Source of the DNA: an uncultured Leptospira sp.
GTDB taxonomy: Bacteria; Spirochaetota; UBA4802; UB4802
Direction: 5' to 3'
Length of the DNA: 64,000 nucleotides
NCBI GenBank assembly: GCA_964509195.1
Contig: CAZDWJ010000008.1
Span: forward strand, 61,190 to 125,189
Shown here: positions 20,289 to 44,858 of the stretch, one piece after another
How positions within the stretch are numbered: position 1 is the stretch's first letter
Layout of the letters: each line of letters begins with the position of its first letter
Position numbers and translations under genes: made by a program
Notes under the pieces: model-generated
Databases searched by the model: none
Told to the model about the DNA's origin: nothing
What the model saw: the letters and a program-made list of their open reading frames with translations, nothing else

Positions 20289-21503
20289 TTAAAACGCCAC
20301 AGCTGTTTTAATGGCTTTATGTAATCCTTTGTTGCTATTTACCTCAATCATTTCTCTGTACAGTTCAATACTGAATGTATGGGTTACCATAGATTCAATA
20401 TCAGGCATTTTTTTCATAAGCTCAATGGCTTTTTCAAAGATATGTTTTTGTTTTCCTGCTTCCTTTACGTAGCCATATCCATATACGCCTTTGACAGTAA
20501 TAAGTTTTAACCACAGCGGTGTTGGATCAAAAGAAAGCTTGGCAGTGATACCAACAAGGCTTACTGTACCCCCGGCACGTGTAATATTTATGGCTTTAGC
20601 AAAAGTTTTTGTTGAGCCAACCGTGTCAAATACTTTATCAAAACCACCTTGCATGATATGTGGACCCATCATGGGTTTATATATTTTTCCTTTTGTAAGT
20701 TCAACTATCTGCGTTTCATTATCTATCACTGTATTTGCCCCGTATTCTAATGCCTTTTCTCTGTGGAATAAAGAAGGCTCCATAATCGCTATGGTAGATC
20801 TAATATTTAATGCTCTCAGTGCTCGAATGAGCATAAGTCCAATAACACCGCAGCCAATGATACATATGCGGTCAGAATTTTGTGGTTTATTATCATAGAT
20901 TGCCTGCAGAGCCACACTTAATGGCTCAGTAAGCACTGCTGCTTTATCGCTGATTGTAGCAGAAACTACAAAAAGCTGTGCGCGGTGTGCAGGCAGATAC
21001 TGCGCAAAGCCGCCGTTGACTTCTTTACAAATTCCAGTAAACATCCCTGGGGCAATACTGCCTTTAGCAAAGTTTTCGCAGTTTGCAGGCCTGCCATTTT
21101 TACACGCCTGGCATAGCGGTTGCTGTCGCACAACACAGGAAAGCATGGGATTTACTACCACACGCTGCCCTTTTTTTAAACCGGTGCCTCCTGGCTCTTC
21201 AATAGTACCACACACCTCATGACCAATCACGCATGGAAATGATGTAAATGGTGAGGCCATGGGCGAGTCATGAAGCTGTATCAGGTTATAATCACTTCCA
21301 CAAAAGCCACAATAGGTGACTTTAACAATGGCCCAGTTTGTATCAAGAGGCTTTGGTGCAGGAATATCTACAAGTTTGAGTGTGCCAAGTTGGCTTTTAT
21401 AGAACACAGATTTTGAAAATGCACCAAGTGTTTTGAGCGCTATCCATTGTGGGACAGTTACATTGAATTGCAGTGCTTTCATATTTTCACATTCATCAAT
21501 CAA
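20289..21503 (-). CDS. zinc-dependent medium-chain dehydrogenase/reductase (MDR alcohol dehydrogenase family)
   Basis: GHEVCGTIEE (the GHE zinc-ligand motif), structural-zinc Cys cluster (CQACKNGRPANC), Rossmann motif IGCGVIGL. The listed start overlaps the upstream TPP-enzyme gene by 8 nt. An alternative ATG is at 21482. Confidence 0.8.
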   Translation of the reverse strand: MIDECENMKALQFNVTVPQWIALKTLGAFSKSVFYKSQLGTLKLVDIPAPKPLDTNWAIVKVTYCGFCGSDYNLIQLHDSPMASPFTSFPCVIGHEVCGTIEEPGGTGLKKGQRVVVNPMLSCVVRQQPLCQACKNGRPANCENFAKGSIAPGMFTGICKEVNGGFAQYLPAHRAQLFVVSATISDKAAVLTEPLSVALQAIYDNKPQNSDRICIIGCGVIGLMLIRALRALNIRSTIAIMEPSLFHREKALEYGANTVIDNETQIVELTKGKIYKPMMGPHIMQGGFDKVFDTVGSTKTFAKAINITRAGGTVSLVGITAKLSFDPTPLWLKLITVKGVYGYGYVKEAGKQKHIFEKAIELMKKMPDIESMVTHTFSIELYREMIEVNSNKGLHKAIKTAVAF

Positions 21504-23151
21504 ATTTCAGCGACTGATAAAAAAGTGGCGTTGCCGGGCTTGTCACTGTCGGATCTGTTAAGACATTTACACATGCTGGTTTGCCGCTTTCCTTTGCACG
21601 GATGAGCGCTGGTGCTATCGCCTCATCCTTATCAACAAATTCGCCATAACAACCCATTCCTTCTACAACCTTTTCGTAGCGGCGAATGCCAAGCTCAGCA
21701 CAGGTCACGCGCTCTTTGCCAATTGAAAGCTCCTGGCTGTGTTTGATCATGCCCCACGCACAGTCATTGTTCACAATGCAGGTAAATGGGATATTATGGC
21801 GCACCGCTGTGTCAAATTCAAATCCGTTAAATCCAAATGAGCCATCGCCTGATAGTACCACCACCTGCTTATTCGGATGAATTAGCTTTGCAGCAATGCC
21901 AAAGGGCACCCCCGCACCAAGGCATCCAAGAAGTCCTGCCGATTGTGATATAACACCTGCTTTGTGTTTAGATTGAAATCCTACCAGGCCAAAGTATGTG
22001 GTATCACCACCATCTACCACATACAGAGCGTCGGTGCCAAACACTTCCTGAATCTTTGCAACCAGCCTGATTGGATGAATTGGATCAGAGGAATTCTGTC
22101 TAAGTTTTATTTCACTGTCAATAAATGCGTATCCTGCCTGAGTCAGCATATCAAGCCACTGTGTATGATCTTTTTGTTCAACAAGTGGCAGTAATGCTTT
22201 GAGTGCTGCGCCTGCATCGCCGTAAAGTCCCACATCAGCTTTTCGGTTGCGGTTGATCTCAGTTGGTTCAATGTCAATGCGTATAACTTTTGTGGTTGGC
22301 GGAATTATTGCCCCCGACTGAAAGAGCCAGTTGAAGCGGATACCGGTCGCAACAATGACATCAGCCTGTGATAGTGTCATCATGAGTCCTACGTTGCCAA
22401 TATTCCATATTGATTGGGGATGATTATCAGGAAGCACTCCGCGTCCACCATTGAGCAAAATAAACGGTATGCCGGTTTTTTCTACAAAAGCCTGTAGTTC
22501 CAGCGCACAGTTGCTATATCCTATACCTGAGCCACCAATAAAAAGTGGCTTTTTAGCAGTGTTGATAATATCAGCAGCTGTGTAAAGGCCTGCCATATCT
22601 GGCACAGGCTTGCAATTATCATAACTTATCTCAAATTCAAAATCATCAACCGACCTGCCCAACACATCTGGCGGCAGTTCTAAAAATACTGGACCTGGCC
22701 TGCCACATGTTGCGTGTCTAAATGCTAAGTCTAAATATTCTGGAATGCGCTTTGTATCATAACAGGTAGCGCACCATTTCACAATGGGCTTTACCACATC
22801 AACCTGATTCATCTCCTGCAGTGCGCCTTTGTGGTCATCACGCAGTGGATGACGTCCGCACAGCACCACAACTGGTGCATTATCTAAATACGCATTTGCA
22901 ATGCCGGTAATGCCGTTGGTAAAACCTGGACCTGCGGTTAGAAAACATACTCCGGGATTTCCGGTATACACTGCCACAGCATGCGCCATCATCACTGCAG
23001 CTTGTTCATGGCGTACATCAATCGACCTTATACCATACTGCTGCAACCCGTCTAACAGCGCTTCAATATGCCCACCTGATATGCCAAATGCAAATTGCAC
23101 ATCACGCTTTGACAAATACTTCCCTATCAAATGGCCACCATTTATAGCCAT
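21496..23151 (-). CDS. thiamine-pyrophosphate enzyme of the 2-hydroxyacyl-CoA lyase / oxalyl-CoA decarboxylase family
   Basis: 551 aa. Blocks remembered from human HACL1 are matched: GVLPDNHPQS (HACL GVVPDNHPYC), QADVIVATGIRFNWL (FADVIVLFGARLNWI), and the TPP motif LSGDGSFGFNGFEFDTAVRHNIPFTCIVNN ([29 protein letters not shown]). Confidence 0.8.
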   Translation of the reverse strand: MAINGGHLIGKYLSKRDVQFAFGISGGHIEALLDGLQQYGIRSIDVRHEQAAVMMAHAVAVYTGNPGVCFLTAGPGFTNGITGIANAYLDNAPVVVLCGRHPLRDDHKGALQEMNQVDVVKPIVKWCATCYDTKRIPEYLDLAFRHATCGRPGPVFLELPPDVLGRSVDDFEFEISYDNCKPVPDMAGLYTAADIINTAKKPLFIGGSGIGYSNCALELQAFVEKTGIPFILLNGGRGVLPDNHPQSIWNIGNVGLMMTLSQADVIVATGIRFNWLFQSGAIIPPTTKVIRIDIEPTEINRNRKADVGLYGDAGAALKALLPLVEQKDHTQWLDMLTQAGYAFIDSEIKLRQNSSDPIHPIRLVAKIQEVFGTDALYVVDGGDTTYFGLVGFQSKHKAGVISQSAGLLGCLGAGVPFGIAAKLIHPNKQVVVLSGDGSFGFNGFEFDTAVRHNIPFTCIVNNDCAWGMIKHSQELSIGKERVTCAELGIRRYEKVVEGMGCYGEFVDKDEAIAPALIRAKESGKPACVNVLTDPTVTSPATPLFYQSLKFD

Positions 23152-37853: not shown

Positions 37854-40700
37854 GTGTATGGGAAACTATCTATTCTATTTTTGATACTTTTTTTTAATGT
37901 TGGGTATGCGATAGCAGCCACGTTCAATGTACTCATCTATCCAACGCCACTAGTATACATACACAATCAATCATATTTTCAGAGAATCATTATACAGGCT
38001 CATCAAGAGTTTGAAGGTGAAATTGTTGCCTGGATGGATGGTGTCAGCACAAAGAAGATAGTTACTACTCCAACAACTAATACAGCTATCGACTGTAAAA
38101 GAAATAGTATCAACTCGCCATCACAATTGAAAATTACTATAAGAAGGAATGATTCTATAGTTGCACAAAAAATCCTGTCAATACCTCCGGTAAAGGAATG
38201 GAAAATCTACTGTGTGCCCTTTGCGCACGTAGACATAGGTTTTACACAATCACAAAAGAATGTCCGCATTCAGAATCTGCGCAATATCGATACACATCTT
38301 TCCTTGTGCCAAAAGACAAAAAACTATCCGCCCGGCTCTCGATTTAAGCTTTTTACGGAAGTGAGCTGGCCTATTATTGAATACCTCAATGACCCGGCAA
38401 CACCTCACAGCAACAAGAATACACTTATTAAAGCATTGAAAAATGGTGATGTTGAGCTGGGTGCTTTTGTCATTTCTCATCAAAATAGGTTTATGAGTAC
38501 TTATGCACTTTTATCATCAGTGCGGCATACACTTACTATCGCACAAAAATACAACGTTGCCGTGAAAACTGCATGTATTCATGATGTCATGGATTTTTCC
38601 AAATTGCCAAAAGTCCTATATGCCAATAATATACCATACTGCCTGATTGGCCCCAATGACTCACGATATATAGTGCCGCCCCTTTTTTATCTAGCATCAC
38701 CTGATGGAAGCGCAAAGGTGCTGGCGTGGCATACCGTTGGGCTTAACGGGTATGGCGAAAATTTTGATTTGAATATGCGTCTTACATTGCCCTTCAAAGA
38801 CGATGATTTTAGCATAATGGAAACCAGCGTTGCACAGCATTTGGCGCAACTTGAAAAAGGATATCCCACAGAAGAAATTTCACGGTATTATGATTATGCA
38901 AACAAACAGTGGAACTATCCCTATGATGCATATCTTTTACCGTATTATCCGTCCCAGGGTGGCGACAATCAGCCTCAGACGATTGTACCTTCAGAAATTG
39001 CAAAGAGATGGAATGCAAAATTTATTAATCCAAAGATAGTCATTGCAACGCCTGCGGATTTCTTTGATTATGTATCAGCTGCGTATGGCGCACAGATTCC
39101 GATTATAAAAGGGGAATTGCCGCCATTCTGGGGTGAACAGATATATTTAGATTTTATTCAGGTTGATCCGCAGCGATTATCAATTAACTACTGGTATGAT
39201 TATGCACACCATTCACGCGGGATACATATGGTACAATCGCTACTTCTTGGTAAGCCTGTTGATATTACATCGTATAGTACACAAAGTCTTGAAGGGTACA
39301 TGGCAATCATACTTAATAATGACCACAATCCCAGACCTGTGCCATTCGGGAAAACGCATTACACAAAGCAGGATGTTCAAGACTGGATGGACACACGCAA
39401 TCAGTGGGTATATGCGCCTTTGAATGTTATGAAGGATGCAAAAGATGTACAGCAAAGCCGTAAGGAAGATGCTTTGTGGACGCTGGTGAACACACAAACA
39501 AATCCTCTAATTCTTGAAAATGCATTCTACCGTATTGCATTTGATAAAACGAAAGGCTGTATTACCAGTATTTTTGATGCACAGCTACAAAAGGAATTGG
39601 TAAACACACAGCACCGCTACGGCTTTAATCAATACGTTATAGGGGTACGGGGTGAAAACACTGGGAAGCGCAATTATTTTGACACCCAGGAAGGATTCAA
39701 ACGCGTCATATCCACGGTATATACAAATCCCAACAACGATTACAAAATAATTGTTAAAGGGTCAGAGCGTTCCTATTACAAGGGTATGGAATTGCTCTCT
39801 GAATTTTTGCATAAAGCATTTGGCATAAAGTTACCACCAACTTTGTTGAAAGTAGCGTATTTTTTCTATCAGCTGTTTACACCATCACTGTCGCTTACAC
39901 AGGAGATTATCATACCTGCTAATGAAAAGCGAATTGATTGTATACAACATTTTGAAGGTACTGCACCTCAAATAGCGGAACATTACTTTGCCTATCCTTT
40001 GGTTTTTGATGAGCTATCGTATGATTCTGGCTTTACGGTTGTAAAATGGAAGAGTCAAGACAATAGCGGTGACCTTATCCCAGCCGCTAAAAATACTGCA
40101 CCATTTAGAAGCATTAACGATACGCTGTATCCATTTCAGTGGATGTACGCAATCCCAACTTCTTTGTATTGTGATGGGTTTGTGTTGCAAAAAGACCGTT
40201 CACACTATGCATTATTTATCACACACAATAGCAAGGCGATAGTTCCAGATAATGATTCAAGTGCATTTTATCACTGTTGCATTGGATGGTCGTTGTGGGG
40301 TACTTTAGGGCTGGGACGCAATTTGCCAGATACTATCGCATTTAAAAGCACTTTTACAAGCTTTACGGCACACACAAAGAATGAAGCGATAGCAACTGCG
40401 TACAAACTTACATTTGATATATCAGGCCACACGAATCAATCGGCTGTAGAGTCACGTAATAGTAATGTGCGTGTTGTATATCTTCAACCTCTTTCAGAAA
40501 AAAGGATTGTTGTTGGTGTTTATGAGCTATCAGGCACGATGCAGTTTACTGAGCTTGTGATAAACACAAAACGTAGGATACTCAAGGCATATCATTCAGA
40601 CATTAATGGAAAAAAAATCAAAGCGCTGCAATTATCAGGAACTTCATTACCATTGAGTCTACATCCACATCAACTATCGTTTATAACATTTGAATTATAA
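37854..40700 (+). CDS. secreted glycoside hydrolase family 38-like protein (putative alpha-mannosidase-like), 948 aa
   Basis: Signal peptide. VPFAHVDIGFTQ resembles the GH38 N-terminal metal-binding motif (VPHSHNDPGW / HMHWDREW), but the first His is Phe here. An extra roughly 120-aa N-terminal domain is present. Family assignment is tentative. Confidence 0.4.
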   Translation: MYGKLSILFLILFFNVGYAIAATFNVLIYPTPLVYIHNQSYFQRIIIQAHQEFEGEIVAWMDGVSTKKIVTTPTTNTAIDCKRNSINSPSQLKITIRRNDSIVAQKILSIPPVKEWKIYCVPFAHVDIGFTQSQKNVRIQNLRNIDTHLSLCQKTKNYPPGSRFKLFTEVSWPIIEYLNDPATPHSNKNTLIKALKNGDVELGAFVISHQNRFMSTYALLSSVRHTLTIAQKYNVAVKTACIHDVMDFSKLPKVLYANNIPYCLIGPNDSRYIVPPLFYLASPDGSAKVLAWHTVGLNGYGENFDLNMRLTLPFKDDDFSIMETSVAQHLAQLEKGYPTEEISRYYDYANKQWNYPYDAYLLPYYPSQGGDNQPQTIVPSEIAKRWNAKFINPKIVIATPADFFDYVSAAYGAQIPIIKGELPPFWGEQIYLDFIQVDPQRLSINYWYDYAHHSRGIHMVQSLLLGKPVDITSYSTQSLEGYMAIILNNDHNPRPVPFGKTHYTKQDVQDWMDTRNQWVYAPLNVMKDAKDVQQSRKEDALWTLVNTQTNPLILENAFYRIAFDKTKGCITSIFDAQLQKELVNTQHRYGFNQYVIGVRGENTGKRNYFDTQEGFKRVISTVYTNPNNDYKIIVKGSERSYYKGMELLSEFLHKAFGIKLPPTLLKVAYFFYQLFTPSLSLTQEIIIPANEKRIDCIQHFEGTAPQIAEHYFAYPLVFDELSYDSGFTVVKWKSQDNSGDLIPAAKNTAPFRSINDTLYPFQWMYAIPTSLYCDGFVLQKDRSHYALFITHNSKAIVPDNDSSAFYHCCIGWSLWGTLGLGRNLPDTIAFKSTFTSFTAHTKNEAIATAYKLTFDISGHTNQSAVESRNSNVRVVYLQPLSEKRIVVGVYELSGTMQFTELVINTKRRILKAYHSDINGKKIKALQLSGTSLPLSLHPHQLSFITFEL

Positions 40701-41433: not shown

Positions 41434-42405
41434 ATGAAAACAATAGTTGTAACGGGATGTTCAGGGTATCTGGGGCAGCATGTAGTGCAAACGTTACTAC
41501 AGGAACAATATGCAGTCACCGGCATTGATATAAAAGAATCACCGGCACAGGGTCAGAGCAATTTTACGTTTGTCAAAGGCGATATTGTTGATTCTGAATT
41601 TGTGATGAATGCCTGTAAAAATGCTAATGCCGTAGTCCATTGTGCTGCTGCGCTTGCGCAATTTGTCAAAGATGCACAACGCATGCATGATATAAATGTA
41701 ATTGGTACAAAGAATATCATTGGAGCGTGTAAAAAACATGCCATAAAACAATTAGTATTTATCTCATCGGTTGAAGTGTATGGTATTGATGTGCCCGTTC
41801 CCTGTCCTGAGGATGCACCTTTGCGCCCTGTATGTCCATACGGCGAACACAAGGTTGAAGGGGAGCGGATGTGTGCAGAATTAGCCGGGAAAGGCTGTGG
41901 TGTTGCAATCCTCAGACCACCAACAATTAACGGACCCGGGCAAAACGAGCCTTTCCTTGTTGAACAGATGAAAGCTATAAAACAAGGAAAGCCAGTAATT
42001 CTTCCAGGTGGAGGAAAAACACGATTGCAGATGGTGGATGTCCGCGATGTTGCTCAGGCAGTGCTGCTGTCACTCAAAAAAGTTAGCAAAGGAGTACTCA
42101 TTGCAAATATTGCTAGCGATAATGTGCCTACCATCCGCCAGATGGTAAAAGCTCTGTTTAATCATGCAGGAAAGAAAGAAAAGATACTATCTGTACCTGC
42201 ACCTGTAGCACGTGCTATTGTCAAAACCCTTTCATTGTTTGGCATATCACCGCTGGAACCACAACATCTGGAAATAGCACTGCGCGATTATGTGTTTGAT
42301 AATACACGAGCAAAGAAAGAGTTGGGATGGAAACCAACCAAAAATGACATTGAAAGCGCTATTGATGCATATGAGTGGTTTATCCACCACAATCCTTCGA
42401 CGTAG
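41434..42405 (+). CDS. NAD-dependent epimerase/dehydratase family (extended SDR) protein
   Basis: VTGCSGYLGQHVV Rossmann motif, catalytic YxxxK (YGEHK). 323 aa. Confidence 0.8.
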   Translation: MKTIVVTGCSGYLGQHVVQTLLQEQYAVTGIDIKESPAQGQSNFTFVKGDIVDSEFVMNACKNANAVVHCAAALAQFVKDAQRMHDINVIGTKNIIGACKKHAIKQLVFISSVEVYGIDVPVPCPEDAPLRPVCPYGEHKVEGERMCAELAGKGCGVAILRPPTINGPGQNEPFLVEQMKAIKQGKPVILPGGGKTRLQMVDVRDVAQAVLLSLKKVSKGVLIANIASDNVPTIRQMVKALFNHAGKKEKILSVPAPVARAIVKTLSLFGISPLEPQHLEIALRDYVFDNTRAKKELGWKPTKNDIESAIDAYEWFIHHNPST

Positions 42406-42540
42406 CATTGAAAATAATGGAATTAGCTATGAAACAGGGGGTTCCACTGCAAAAATTAGTCACTCATAAATTTAGCATTGATGAAGCTGAAGCGGCATTG
42501 CTACGAAGTGATTACATGAAAGCAGTAATTGTGCCATAAG
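42375..42540 (+). pseudogene. relic 3' end (about 50 codons) of a zinc-dependent MDR dehydrogenase gene
   Basis: Translates to ...SFDVALKIMELAMKQGVPLQKLVTHKFSIDEAEAALLRSDYMKAVIVP*. This is the typical C-terminus of threonine/sorbitol-dehydrogenase-like MDRs (..iTH.F.L.e...Af......K.vi). No N-terminal part exists. It overlaps the SDR gene's last 30 nt in another frame. Confidence 0.45.
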
Positions 42541-42560
42541 TATATTGATGAGGATGAGTC

Positions 42561-43262
42561 ATGAACATTTTTTTTATATTAATTGGACAGGCAACCGTTG
42601 TTATTAACGTAAATGGGATAGTCTTTATGACCGATCCCTGGTGGGGCTCTTTTGAATTTTTGCGTGCAGTCCCATTGTCAATAAATCCAGAGGAAATATC
42701 ACCTCTGCATTATATGCTAGTTTCACATAATCACATTGATCATTGGTGTGAGAGTGCCATCAAACTGGCAAAAGAAAAGGATTGCATGGTTATAGGGTCA
42801 ACAAAATCGGTAAAACGTGCCCGTAAAAAGAGTGTTAAACAATGTAAGGCTCTGACCCCGGGCGATAGTGTTGATTGCAATGGTGTTATGGTGTATGCGG
42901 TTCCAGGATTTCATCCATTTGCAAAGGATGCAATAGGCTTTATCATACAAAAAGGTAATATTACACTGTATTTTTCGGGGGATACGCTGTACACTGAAAA
43001 TTTACTCAAGGCTCTGACCCCATACTCAGTAACTATCGCCATGATACAGGTTGCCTGTTCCACCTACCCACTGGTGGGTAAAGACGGGATGGATTTGGAG
43101 GCGGCATCACGCTTTGTTGCAGATGTAAAACCTGGGATTGTAATACCCATACACTATCAGATAAAGGGAAAGTACCTCACTTACGCGCAGTTACAAAACT
43201 GGAACGTTGATGCACAAAAAATTATTTTGCCCCATGGGAAGGAGTTTCATTTGCAAATATAA
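42561..43262 (+). CDS. MBL-fold metallo-hydrolase (possible lactonase)
   Basis: 233 aa. HNHIDHW metal-binding motif. Confidence 0.7.
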   Translation: MNIFFILIGQATVVINVNGIVFMTDPWWGSFEFLRAVPLSINPEEISPLHYMLVSHNHIDHWCESAIKLAKEKDCMVIGSTKSVKRARKKSVKQCKALTPGDSVDCNGVMVYAVPGFHPFAKDAIGFIIQKGNITLYFSGDTLYTENLLKALTPYSVTIAMIQVACSTYPLVGKDGMDLEAASRFVADVKPGIVIPIHYQIKGKYLTYAQLQNWNVDAQKIILPHGKEFHLQI

Positions 43263-43508
43263 GGGAACTTTTAAAAAACCATTTATAAGGTTGTTCCCTT
43301 GTGGGCACAATATATAGGCAAAAACCGCTTTTTTGCTGCTAATTGTAAGGATGAAAGTGGTTTTTAGAGGTGCCCATAATTTCTGGGATTTTAGTGCAAT
43401 TGTTGTAACAAAATGAGAATAGCATGAAAATGTTATATTGATCACTACCAAAAGGAGAAACATCCAGGGTTGTAAAGACTAAATTTTCGATCGCATAATG
43501 ACCTCAAA

Positions 43509-44858
43509 ATGACATTACAAAAAAATATTTTGGAGGAAAGTATGATAGAAAAGCCACCTTCTGGTTTTAACCTCATCAAAGTGTTGGGTCCGGGGCTTGT
43601 GTGGTCGGCAAGTGCAATTGGGGTGTCAGAGCTTGTGTTTGCCACACGTTCTGGCGCGTTATTTGGATATTTGTTGTTATGGGCGCCGATTGTATCTCTT
43701 GTGATGAAGTATGCTATCTTTGAGCTGGTTGGCCGATACACCATTGCAACAGGTCAAAATGTCCTGATTGCATTTGCCCAGGTTGAAATTGATCTAAAAC
43801 TTTTCAAACTAAAAACCGGGTGGGTGATAACACTTTTCTGGATAGTGTTTATTGCAAGTGTTTCAGGAATAGCAGGTATTGCCTTGTCGGTTGGTAGCTG
43901 CATATACGGGCTTGTTCCTGCAATTTCAATGGAGATGGCAACGGTGTGTTCGATAGTAGCTGTTGGAATAATTTTGTATTTAGGAAGTTATGTAACGCTG
44001 GAAAAAATATCACGGGTGCTGGTTTTTGTAATGATACTGTTTTTAGTGTATGCATTAATCGAAACTTCTCCCAATCCAGCTGAGATGGCAGGTGGTCTGC
44101 TACCACGGGCGCCGTTTTACACGTTACGTGAGCTCATTCCGCTTTTAGGGTGGACTGGTGCAGGAGCCATAGGCGTGGTATGGTATTCATTATGGATAGA
44201 AGGCAGTAAACGTGGTAAAGGCGATAACACCATAGATACAGACGAAGACAAGCACAGGATAAAAAAATGGATAACCATTAATCAAATAGATTTAAGCATT
44301 AACACTCTCATCACCGCACTGTTAACAGTATTGTTTTTGATTGCAGGTGCAGTGATATTATACCCCAGAGGTATAGTTCCTAAAGGTGAGCAATTAGGCC
44401 TGCACATATCACAGATTGCAGGGGAGAGCTTTGGCAAAGCAGGCGAGATAATTTTTCTTGTTGGCATCTTTGGCACACTGTTTAGCACATTGCTTGCAAA
44501 TATTGATGGATTATGCCGTGTAGCATCTAACTCTGTGTGGTATAGGCGCAAAAAAGATGGCGATAGCAAGTTGCATTATTATAGACTTTTTGTTTTTGTT
44601 TACGTGATACTCACAGCTCTGTTTGCAGTGGTTTTTCCTGCCCCGGTAATACTATTGCAAATTTCTGCAATCATTGATACAGTTTTTTTGCCACTGGTTA
44701 TTGGTCTTGGTATCTACATCTGCCACACACACCTGCCAGATATCTACCGGCCGGGGAAGACACTTACCATAACTGCAATAGCATCAGCACTTTTTTTTAC
44801 TTTTTTTATTGGACTATTTTTCTGGGCTGTGATAATGAAAGTTAACTTTTCAATGTAA
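43509..44858 (+). CDS. Nramp-fold (APC/LeuT superfamily) transporter lacking the canonical metal-binding motifs
   Basis: 449 aa, 11-12 TM helices. The TM1 region GPGLVWSASAIGVSE...FGYLLLW aligns to the Nramp GPGFLMSIAYIDPGN...GFKLLW block with DPGN replaced by GVSE. The TM6 MPH position reads WYS. Confidence 0.6.
   Translation: MTLQKNILEESMIEKPPSGFNLIKVLGPGLVWSASAIGVSELVFATRSGALFGYLLLWAPIVSLVMKYAIFELVGRYTIATGQNVLIAFAQVEIDLKLFKLKTGWVITLFWIVFIASVSGIAGIALSVGSCIYGLVPAISMEMATVCSIVAVGIILYLGSYVTLEKISRVLVFVMILFLVYALIETSPNPAEMAGGLLPRAPFYTLRELIPLLGWTGAGAIGVVWYSLWIEGSKRGKGDNTIDTDEDKHRIKKWITINQIDLSINTLITALLTVLFLIAGAVILYPRGIVPKGEQLGLHISQIAGESFGKAGEIIFLVGIFGTLFSTLLANIDGLCRVASNSVWYRRKKDGDSKLHYYRLFVFVYVILTALFAVVFPAPVILLQISAIIDTVFLPLVIGLGIYICHTHLPDIYRPGKTLTITAIASALFFTFFIGLFFWAVIMKVNFSM

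Follow-up and report, generated by a model that had tools for sequence, protein, structure and literature searches.

A dehydrogenase tail left by deletion in a Spirochaetota operon, and the case for its retention as a small protein

What becomes of the end of a gene when the rest of it is deleted from an operon? The question is raised by a 64,000-nucleotide stretch of DNA from an uncultured Leptospira sp. (Spirochaetota; assembly GCA_964509195.1, contig CAZDWJ010000008.1, positions 61,190 to 125,189; the whole stretch is called the window below), in which a short open reading frame (ORF), here termed the tail ORF, lies between a gene for an SDR-type dehydrogenase and a gene for an MBL-fold hydrolase. 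The tail ORF occupies positions 42375-42539 of the forward strand and comprises 54 codons and a TAA stop (42537-42539), counted from a GTG start at 42375. An earlier note, made from the sequence alone, had described an open frame of about 50 residues resembling the C-terminal tail of zinc-dependent MDR dehydrogenases. We regard it as near certain that the tail ORF is the in-situ C-terminal remnant of such a dehydrogenase, the rest of whose gene was removed when about 1 kb was deleted from an ancestral SDR-MDR-MBL operon. Sequence comparison further suggests, with a probability that we put at roughly 0.55, that purifying selection maintains the remnant in the window lineage as a small ORF that is translated, which would make it a fragment-derived small protein.

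Residues 4-54 of the translation (VVYPPQSFDVALKIMELAMKQGVPLQKLVTHKFSIDEAEAALLRSDYMKAVIVP, followed by the stop) correspond to the last 51 residues of a 383-amino-acid MDR dehydrogenase. A Pfam scan of the 54-residue peptide gave no match, and the threonine dehydrogenase profile TIGR00692 (tdh, NCBIfam; E = 0.14, profile positions 291-331 of 340) and the threonine dehydrogenase structure 5kia in the PDB (E = 0.69, residues 295-332 of 351) were matched below threshold; the top PDB matches, designed helical repeat proteins, were discarded as spurious. The assignment is provided by full-length relatives. A scan with the MBL protein found locus L010 (Ca. Geothermincolia; homologous loci are given L numbers and individual proteins P numbers), which encodes a 382-amino-acid protein with ADH_N and ADH_zinc_N domains, and BLASTP aligned the tail ORF with the last 51 residues of this protein at 65% identity (E = 6e-22). 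A metagenome scan identified 15 further loci with an MDR gene that contains the homologous tail; the gene is complete (about 383 amino acids) in most of them and truncated at a contig end in a few. Identity to the tails of orthologous full-length enzymes ranges from 61 to 90%, the closest intact relatives being P0017 of locus L027 (82%) and the enzyme of L031 (46 of 51 residues). When the L011 MDR was used as a tblastn query, its residues 334-384 aligned with positions 42384-42536 of the window (E = 1.6e-16), which delimits the MDR-homologous segment on the forward strand (MDR residues about 333-383; 82-90% identical to the P0017 and L031 tails). The resemblance described in the earlier note is thus borne out by significant homology to the MDR C-terminus at the syntenic position, as expected for a derived fragment.

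No other piece of the deleted enzyme was detected when full-length MDRs were searched against the window by tblastn, in agreement with the earlier observation that no upstream gene body exists. A split gene with its body elsewhere was considered and rejected within the window, where the sole other MDR gene (20289-21503, reverse strand) encodes a 404-amino-acid, full-length distant paralog that is 25% identical to the deleted MDR and has its own C-terminal tail; this paralog adjoins a gene for a ThDP-dependent enzyme (21496-23151, reverse strand). The intact MDR orthologs have both a GroES-like domain with zinc ligands (ADH_N, PF08240) and a Rossmann-fold coenzyme domain (ADH_zinc_N, PF00107), neither of which was found in the tail ORF by Pfam or at the locus by tblastn. 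MDR dehydrogenases of the threonine/sorbitol dehydrogenase type end in about 51 residues (helix, strand, helix, strand) that pack back against the catalytic domain. The tail corresponds to these residues; with no GroES-like domain, zinc ligands or Rossmann fold, it is a fragment of such a protein and not an enzyme. The closest solved structure to an intact ortholog is the Thermotoga zinc alcohol dehydrogenase 1vj0 (E = 1.7e-48). In the AlphaFold2 (AF2) model of P0017 (pLDDT 92.8), the tail segment forms a helix (335-349), a short helix (354-357), a strand (360-363), a helix (364-372) and a final strand (379-382), and the model implies that the two strands need partners in the MDR catalytic domain.

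Intact versions of the operon show the setting from which the tail derives. Locus L031 (a Spirochaetes metagenome-assembled genome, GCA_026414805.1) contains the window's operon with a 383-amino-acid MDR gene between SDR and MBL, in the order GH38-like, RraA, SDR, MDR, MBL, Nramp, PfkB, and its MBL protein is 81% identical to that of the window. In L027, an SDR gene (88% identical over the last 76 amino acids) is followed by MDR, MBL and PfkB, and in L011, L014, L015 and L019-L022 the order is RraA, IlvD/Edd-type dehydratase, MFS transporter, SDR, MDR, MBL, Nramp. Relatives therefore carry an intact MDR gene at the syntenic site (the SDR-MDR-MBL order of L031, L027 and the L011-type loci), as the earlier note had suggested they might. 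The SDR gene stands directly upstream of an intact MDR gene in L031, L027, L011, L014-L016, L019-L022, L024 and L026; the SDR next to the intact MDR is 53% identical in another phylum, and in the close relative L031 its pN (proportion of nonsynonymous sites that differ) is about 0.1. Because the SDR is the ancestral upstream neighbor of MDR in every intact locus, there was no SDR acquisition. Of the proposal that an MDR gene had been largely deleted or overwritten when the SDR gene was acquired, the deletion of the body (about 1.03-1.05 kb) stands and the acquisition does not.

The same mini-ORF, in the context GH38-like, RraA-like, SDR, ORF, MBL, Nramp-like, PfkB, is present in L001-L004, L012, L033-L036 and probably L032, whose contig begins within the tail; in L003 and L004 it encodes the same 36-amino-acid peptide as in the window. 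Gene callers annotate it in relatives as a protein of 36-40 amino acids (P0001-P0003), and a word-indexed protein search with the peptide retrieved three short ORFs from relatives and nothing else. The MDR gene is wholly lost from L005-L008 and L037-L039, in which the SDR stop lies 0-46 nt from the MBL start and the operons are otherwise identical. MDR has been lost repeatedly in this clade.

The anatomy of the deletion was read from alignments with L001 and L012 and with the intact loci L031 and L027. In the window, the extended-SDR gene (NAD-dependent epimerase/dehydratase family; 41434-42405, forward strand; Pfam PF01370, Epimerase, E = 2e-43) overlaps the tail ORF, as the earlier note had stated, by 31 nt and in a different frame, and its TAG stop (42403-42405) lies inside the tail ORF. 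Junction A, shared by the window and L002, falls between 42383 and 42384 of the forward strand and joins TGGTTTAT, which is SDR-derived, to CCACCACAA, which is MDR sequence from about codon 333 onward. Junction B, found in L001, L012 and L036, reads ...GAGTGGTTT(G/A)TAAA(A/G)A joined to CA(A/C)TGGTCATGTCC..., that is, SDR EWF(V/I)K followed by MDR QWSCPPQSFD; it is 17 nt longer than junction A and keeps QWSC. Relative to L031, about 1031 nt are missing at junction B and 1048 nt at junction A. SDR orthologs end in ...DAYEWF(I/V), beyond which their sequences differ. Through the 17-nt difference the SDR end is read in another frame, as IHHNPST in the window and VKTLVMSAAII in L001, and the last seven sense codons and stop of the window SDR (42384-42405) are MDR-derived DNA read out of frame. 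Microhomology-mediated deletion through the AGTGGT or GTCAA repeats of the intact locus was rejected, as the junctions it predicts differ from those observed.

From these comparisons, the following course of events is near certain. The ancestral operon contained, in order, RraA-like, SDR, MDR dehydrogenase, MBL hydrolase, Nramp-like and PfkB genes. A deletion of about 1.03 kb fused the last SDR codons, after EWF-I/V-K, to about codon 329 of MDR (QWSCPPQSFD...). What remained of MDR was its last 55 or so codons with their stop, followed by the MDR-MBL spacer. A further deletion of 17 nt, in the lineage of the window and L002, moved the junction to about codon 333, gave the SDR a new tail frame and brought a GTG into frame. 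Whether from one deletion or more, junctions A and B lie in a region for which the neighbor-joining gene trees conflict.

An unconstrained remnant should decay, and the earlier note did not foresee that this one would be conserved as an ORF under purifying selection instead. Substitutions were counted by the Nei-Gojobori method over the 51 codons of the tail or over the 45 codons from Val-10 (V10), and the cleanest test is provided by genome pairs sharing a junction, in which all divergence postdates the deletion. For the window and L002 (junction A, 51 codons), 10 synonymous (Sd) and 5 nonsynonymous (Nd) differences were counted, giving a proportion of synonymous differences (pS) of 0.30, a pN of 0.042 and a pN/pS of 0.14. 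With 78% of sites nonsynonymous, the probability of at most 5 nonsynonymous differences out of 15 under neutrality is 2.4e-4, and about 36 nonsynonymous differences would be expected if the tail were neutral. For L001 and L036 (junction B), Sd is 7 and Nd is 4 (P = 0.003). Among pairs of carriers, the 45 codons from V10 show pN values of 0.05-0.08 and pS values of 0.27-0.79, and the flanking RraA, SDR and MBL genes have a similar pN/pS of about 0.03-0.29. Differences between the window and L001 are distributed over the three codon positions as [3,4,22] (P = 3e-6), and an excess at third positions was observed in all pairs.

The tail has also diverged far less than a nearby intergenic spacer. 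From V10 onward, the window and L002 differ at 13 of 135 sites (9.6%) without an indel, compared with 27% divergence, with indels, in the MBL-Nramp spacer of the same pair (P = 5e-6). Measured against the outgroup L027, pN is 0.133 and 0.137 for the relic tails, a distance equal to that of the intact tail in L031 (0.126). The frame is open over 45-54 codons in the window, L002, L001 and L036, with a pN/pS of 0.05-0.16, which is not the pattern of a neutral remnant. The pair of the window and L002 shows purifying selection after the separation of the tail from its parent gene, with the caveat that gene conversion with intact alleles is indicated in L036. The tail pS of 0.30 is too far from zero for the junction that they share to be a recent one.

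No promoter or terminator was found between the SDR and MBL genes, so that SDR, tail and MBL are probably co-transcribed. A stop codon immediately precedes GTG 42375, and the further candidate starts are TTG 42408, ATG 42417 and ATG 42429, of which the two ATGs are conserved. The downstream starts lie 2-23 nt past the SDR stop, a placement that allows re-initiation, and in L001 and L036 a GTG at Val-10 lies 2 nt past that stop. In the codons 5' of Met-15 (PPQSFDVALKI), all five changes between the window and L002 are synonymous; translation thus seems to begin upstream, consistent with the use of GTG 42375. In the window, L002, L001 and L036 lineages the remnant most likely encodes a small peptide. 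Its synthesis would begin either at GTG 42375 or, by re-initiation of ribosomes that have just finished the SDR at 42403-42405, at one of the other starts. This peptide cannot be an enzyme, since it has neither zinc ligands nor a Rossmann fold and its two beta strands are without sheet partners. For this reason partner binding would be its most likely mode of action: the peptide would bind a former partner of this part of MDR, the MBL hydrolase and the SDR being the obvious candidates. Its role would be dispensable, sister lineages having deleted the tail entirely and one having frameshifted it. For the fuller proposal, that the tail is a micro-protein made in situ by deletion, translated without a ribosome-binding site of its own through coupling to SDR termination, and retained for binding to MBL, SDR or the paralogous MDR, the sequence evidence leaves the odds about even.

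Several observations weigh against retention as a small protein, and most of them favor the strongest alternative, a non-functional deletion remnant (pseudogene fragment) that looks conserved because its alleles are young compared with the divergence of the genomes and because it has been refreshed by recombination or gene conversion from intact MDR alleles of related populations. We consider this alternative the less probable of the two but a serious competitor. No Shine-Dalgarno site was found before any candidate start of the tail ORF, in contrast to the strong sites of the SDR, MBL and Nramp genes, and AF2 predicted no fold for the peptide alone (pLDDT 58). The tail ORF occurs in no more than a handful of metagenomic lineages. 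An exhaustive phmmer search against 1.84 billion representatives returned only P0001, P0125 and P0124, and thus no wider family of such tails. Two of these returns are artefacts: P0125 (L030), a "protein" of 36 amino acids, is a contig-end fragment of an intact MDR, and the score of P0124, a repeat protein of 3294 amino acids, sums many weak 18-amino-acid matches. The tail is also absent from the close relatives L005-L008 and L037-L039, several lineages having lost MDR completely and repeatedly. In L012 and L033-L035 it carries a shared +1 frameshift after EAEA(A/T)L, together with GTT at Val-10. The frameshift replaces the last 12 residues and carries the ORF into the MBL start (L012:3339-3557); because it occurs in four contigs from different samples or assemblies, it is real and inherited and not a sequencing error. 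Being deleted in the former loci and frameshifted in the latter, the tail is not required.

The same four loci have no in-frame start 5' of Ala-11; the only start is a downstream TTG in L012, which is lost in L033. Several private nonsynonymous changes have accumulated in this sublineage, as under neutral decay, and the tail ORF is decaying there. That the lineage without this upstream start (GTT at V10) is the very lineage that inherited the frameshift was counted in favor of selection.

Recombination also supports a non-functional remnant. A patch of about 45 nt in L036 (L036:2090-2140) matches intact L031 (L031:2927-2971) exactly but not its own sister L001, and it has the appearance of a short tract of gene conversion that a deleted allele received from one of intact type. 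In trees of RraA, SDR and MBL combined, the intact L031 is sister to the relic-bearing L002 (99.5% bootstrap), so that it falls within the relic-bearing group; RraA with SDR gives this pairing as well. MBL and the tail group the window with L002, and these conflicting, mosaic trees imply recombination breakpoints near the deletion junction. As the locus recombines, conversion from selected intact alleles could mimic purifying selection. The lineage-specific counts are moreover small, with 2 synonymous and 2 nonsynonymous changes on the terminal branch of the window, 3 and 1 in L002, and 9 and 3 in the intact L031. Against this alternative stands the pair of the window and L002, whose tails are mutually closest and share a junction: of their 15 differences over 153 sites, only 5 are nonsynonymous, which calls either for selection or for similar donors having converted both lineages repeatedly. 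The age of the junction indicated by the tail pS is likewise at odds with young alleles, and codons from V10 onward that diverge far less than the spacer of the same pair, and without indels, are difficult to reconcile with the absence of constraint. The retention of the tail as a translated small ORF therefore remains our preferred reading for the window lineage.

A role in cis, in which the sequence of the peptide is irrelevant and the segment either keeps ribosomes moving between SDR and MBL, sustaining MBL expression by translational coupling or by protection from polarity, or acts as an mRNA element, appears improbable. Every form of the operon has an upstream ORF ending 0-46 nt before the MBL start, and in all carriers the SDR stop lies just 5' of the candidate relic starts. 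In the window, the tail ORF ends 21 nt before the MBL gene (UlaG-like, putative lactonase; 42561-43262, forward strand; Pfam PF12706 and PF13483, and synteny), which is the downstream neighbor of MDR in intact operons. The intervening segment (42540-42560, forward strand) is the ancestral MDR-MBL spacer with the MBL Shine-Dalgarno site GAGGA (42550-42554), and the same spacer of about 20 nt follows the intact MDR in L027 and L031. The MBL gene thus has its own strong ribosome-binding site, and lineages without a tail manage. A role in cis would, furthermore, preserve an open frame or a structure but not amino-acid identity, whereas the substitutions are mostly synonymous and at third positions. 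The possibility of an RNA element was rejected: the tail segment had no Rfam match and no unusual folding energy (z = 0.12). On the opposite strand, no ORF of at least 30 amino acids covers most of the tail-ORF segment.

Still less credible is a fusion protein in which ribosomal frameshifting or slippage appends the tail to the SDR as a C-terminal extension. The overlap of the tail ORF with the 3' end of the SDR gene, the lack in L001 and L012 of an in-frame start 5' of PPQSFD, and a run of five A at the junction (GTAAAAAC) would fit such a fusion. A run of five A is, however, too short for efficient slippage, the window contains no canonical slippery heptamer, and owing to the 17-nt indel the required shift would be -1 in the window and L002 but +1 in L001 and L012. 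Weakest of all is the suggestion of the earlier note that MDR was overwritten upon SDR acquisition, in a non-orthologous gene displacement in progress: SDR stays while MDR goes in many lineages, and the two dehydrogenases may be redundant, but every intact locus has an SDR ortholog directly 5' of MDR, and the loss of MDR is not accompanied by any acquisition.

If the peptide is made and functional, it would be a natural example of small proteins arising by enzyme fragmentation, of which there are few cases so far (MntS, AcnSP). MntS derives from the SitA signal peptide (bioRxiv 10.1101/2023.06.02.543501), and AcnSP is a 44-amino-acid peptide resembling the N-terminal part of aconitase (PMC7336809); for both, expression, partners and phenotypes have been shown. 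Like them, the tail ORF is a short ORF (36-54 amino acids) from a larger protein, located in its original neighborhood and conserved in sequence. Unlike them, it is known here from sequence conservation alone, is a C-terminal piece produced by deletion in situ rather than by duplication, has no ribosome-binding site and is restricted to few lineages. With ordinary pseudogene fragments it shares birth by internal deletion, loss in sister lineages and a frameshift in one sublineage; it differs from them in being open in four lineages with a pN/pS (about 0.05-0.15) like that of the flanking genes.

Deletion remnants are common and usually uninteresting. Here, however, a single Spirochaetota clade offers a rare complete allelic series at one locus, with intact (L031, L027), orphan-tail (window, L002, L001, L036), frameshifted (L012, L033-L035) and cleanly lost (L005-L008, L037-L039) forms. 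Should the tail be a small protein, the series would be a snapshot of small-protein birth, with intact, relic, decaying and deleted alleles in one clade. Should its conservation stem from gene conversion with intact alleles, the locus would be a warning against equating a dN/dS (ratio of nonsynonymous to synonymous substitution rates) below 1 with function when a remnant belongs to a recombining population. For annotation, it shows that "hypothetical proteins" of 36-40 amino acids beside truncated operons can be recognizable gene tails.

Some further features of the operon deserve mention. At its head in the window (37854-40700) is encoded a 948-amino-acid protein with weak Pfam matches to the N- and C-terminal GH38 domains only and no NCBIfam match; it is conserved at this position in the Spirochaetota operons but missing from those of the L011 type. 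Downstream, a GGGAAC...GTTCCC hairpin just past the MBL stop opens a segment of about 120 nt in the MBL-Nramp spacer (43263-43385), which is missing in L002 and could represent either a terminator or the insertion of a small repeat. The gene for an Nramp-family transporter lies beside MBL both in the Spirochaetota loci (window 43509-44858) and in the distant L011-type loci (L011:6886-8250), where it is followed by a LarA-like nickel-dependent racemase gene. Metal transport is not a function normally expected beside the genes of a carbohydrate pathway such as this sugar-acid cluster.

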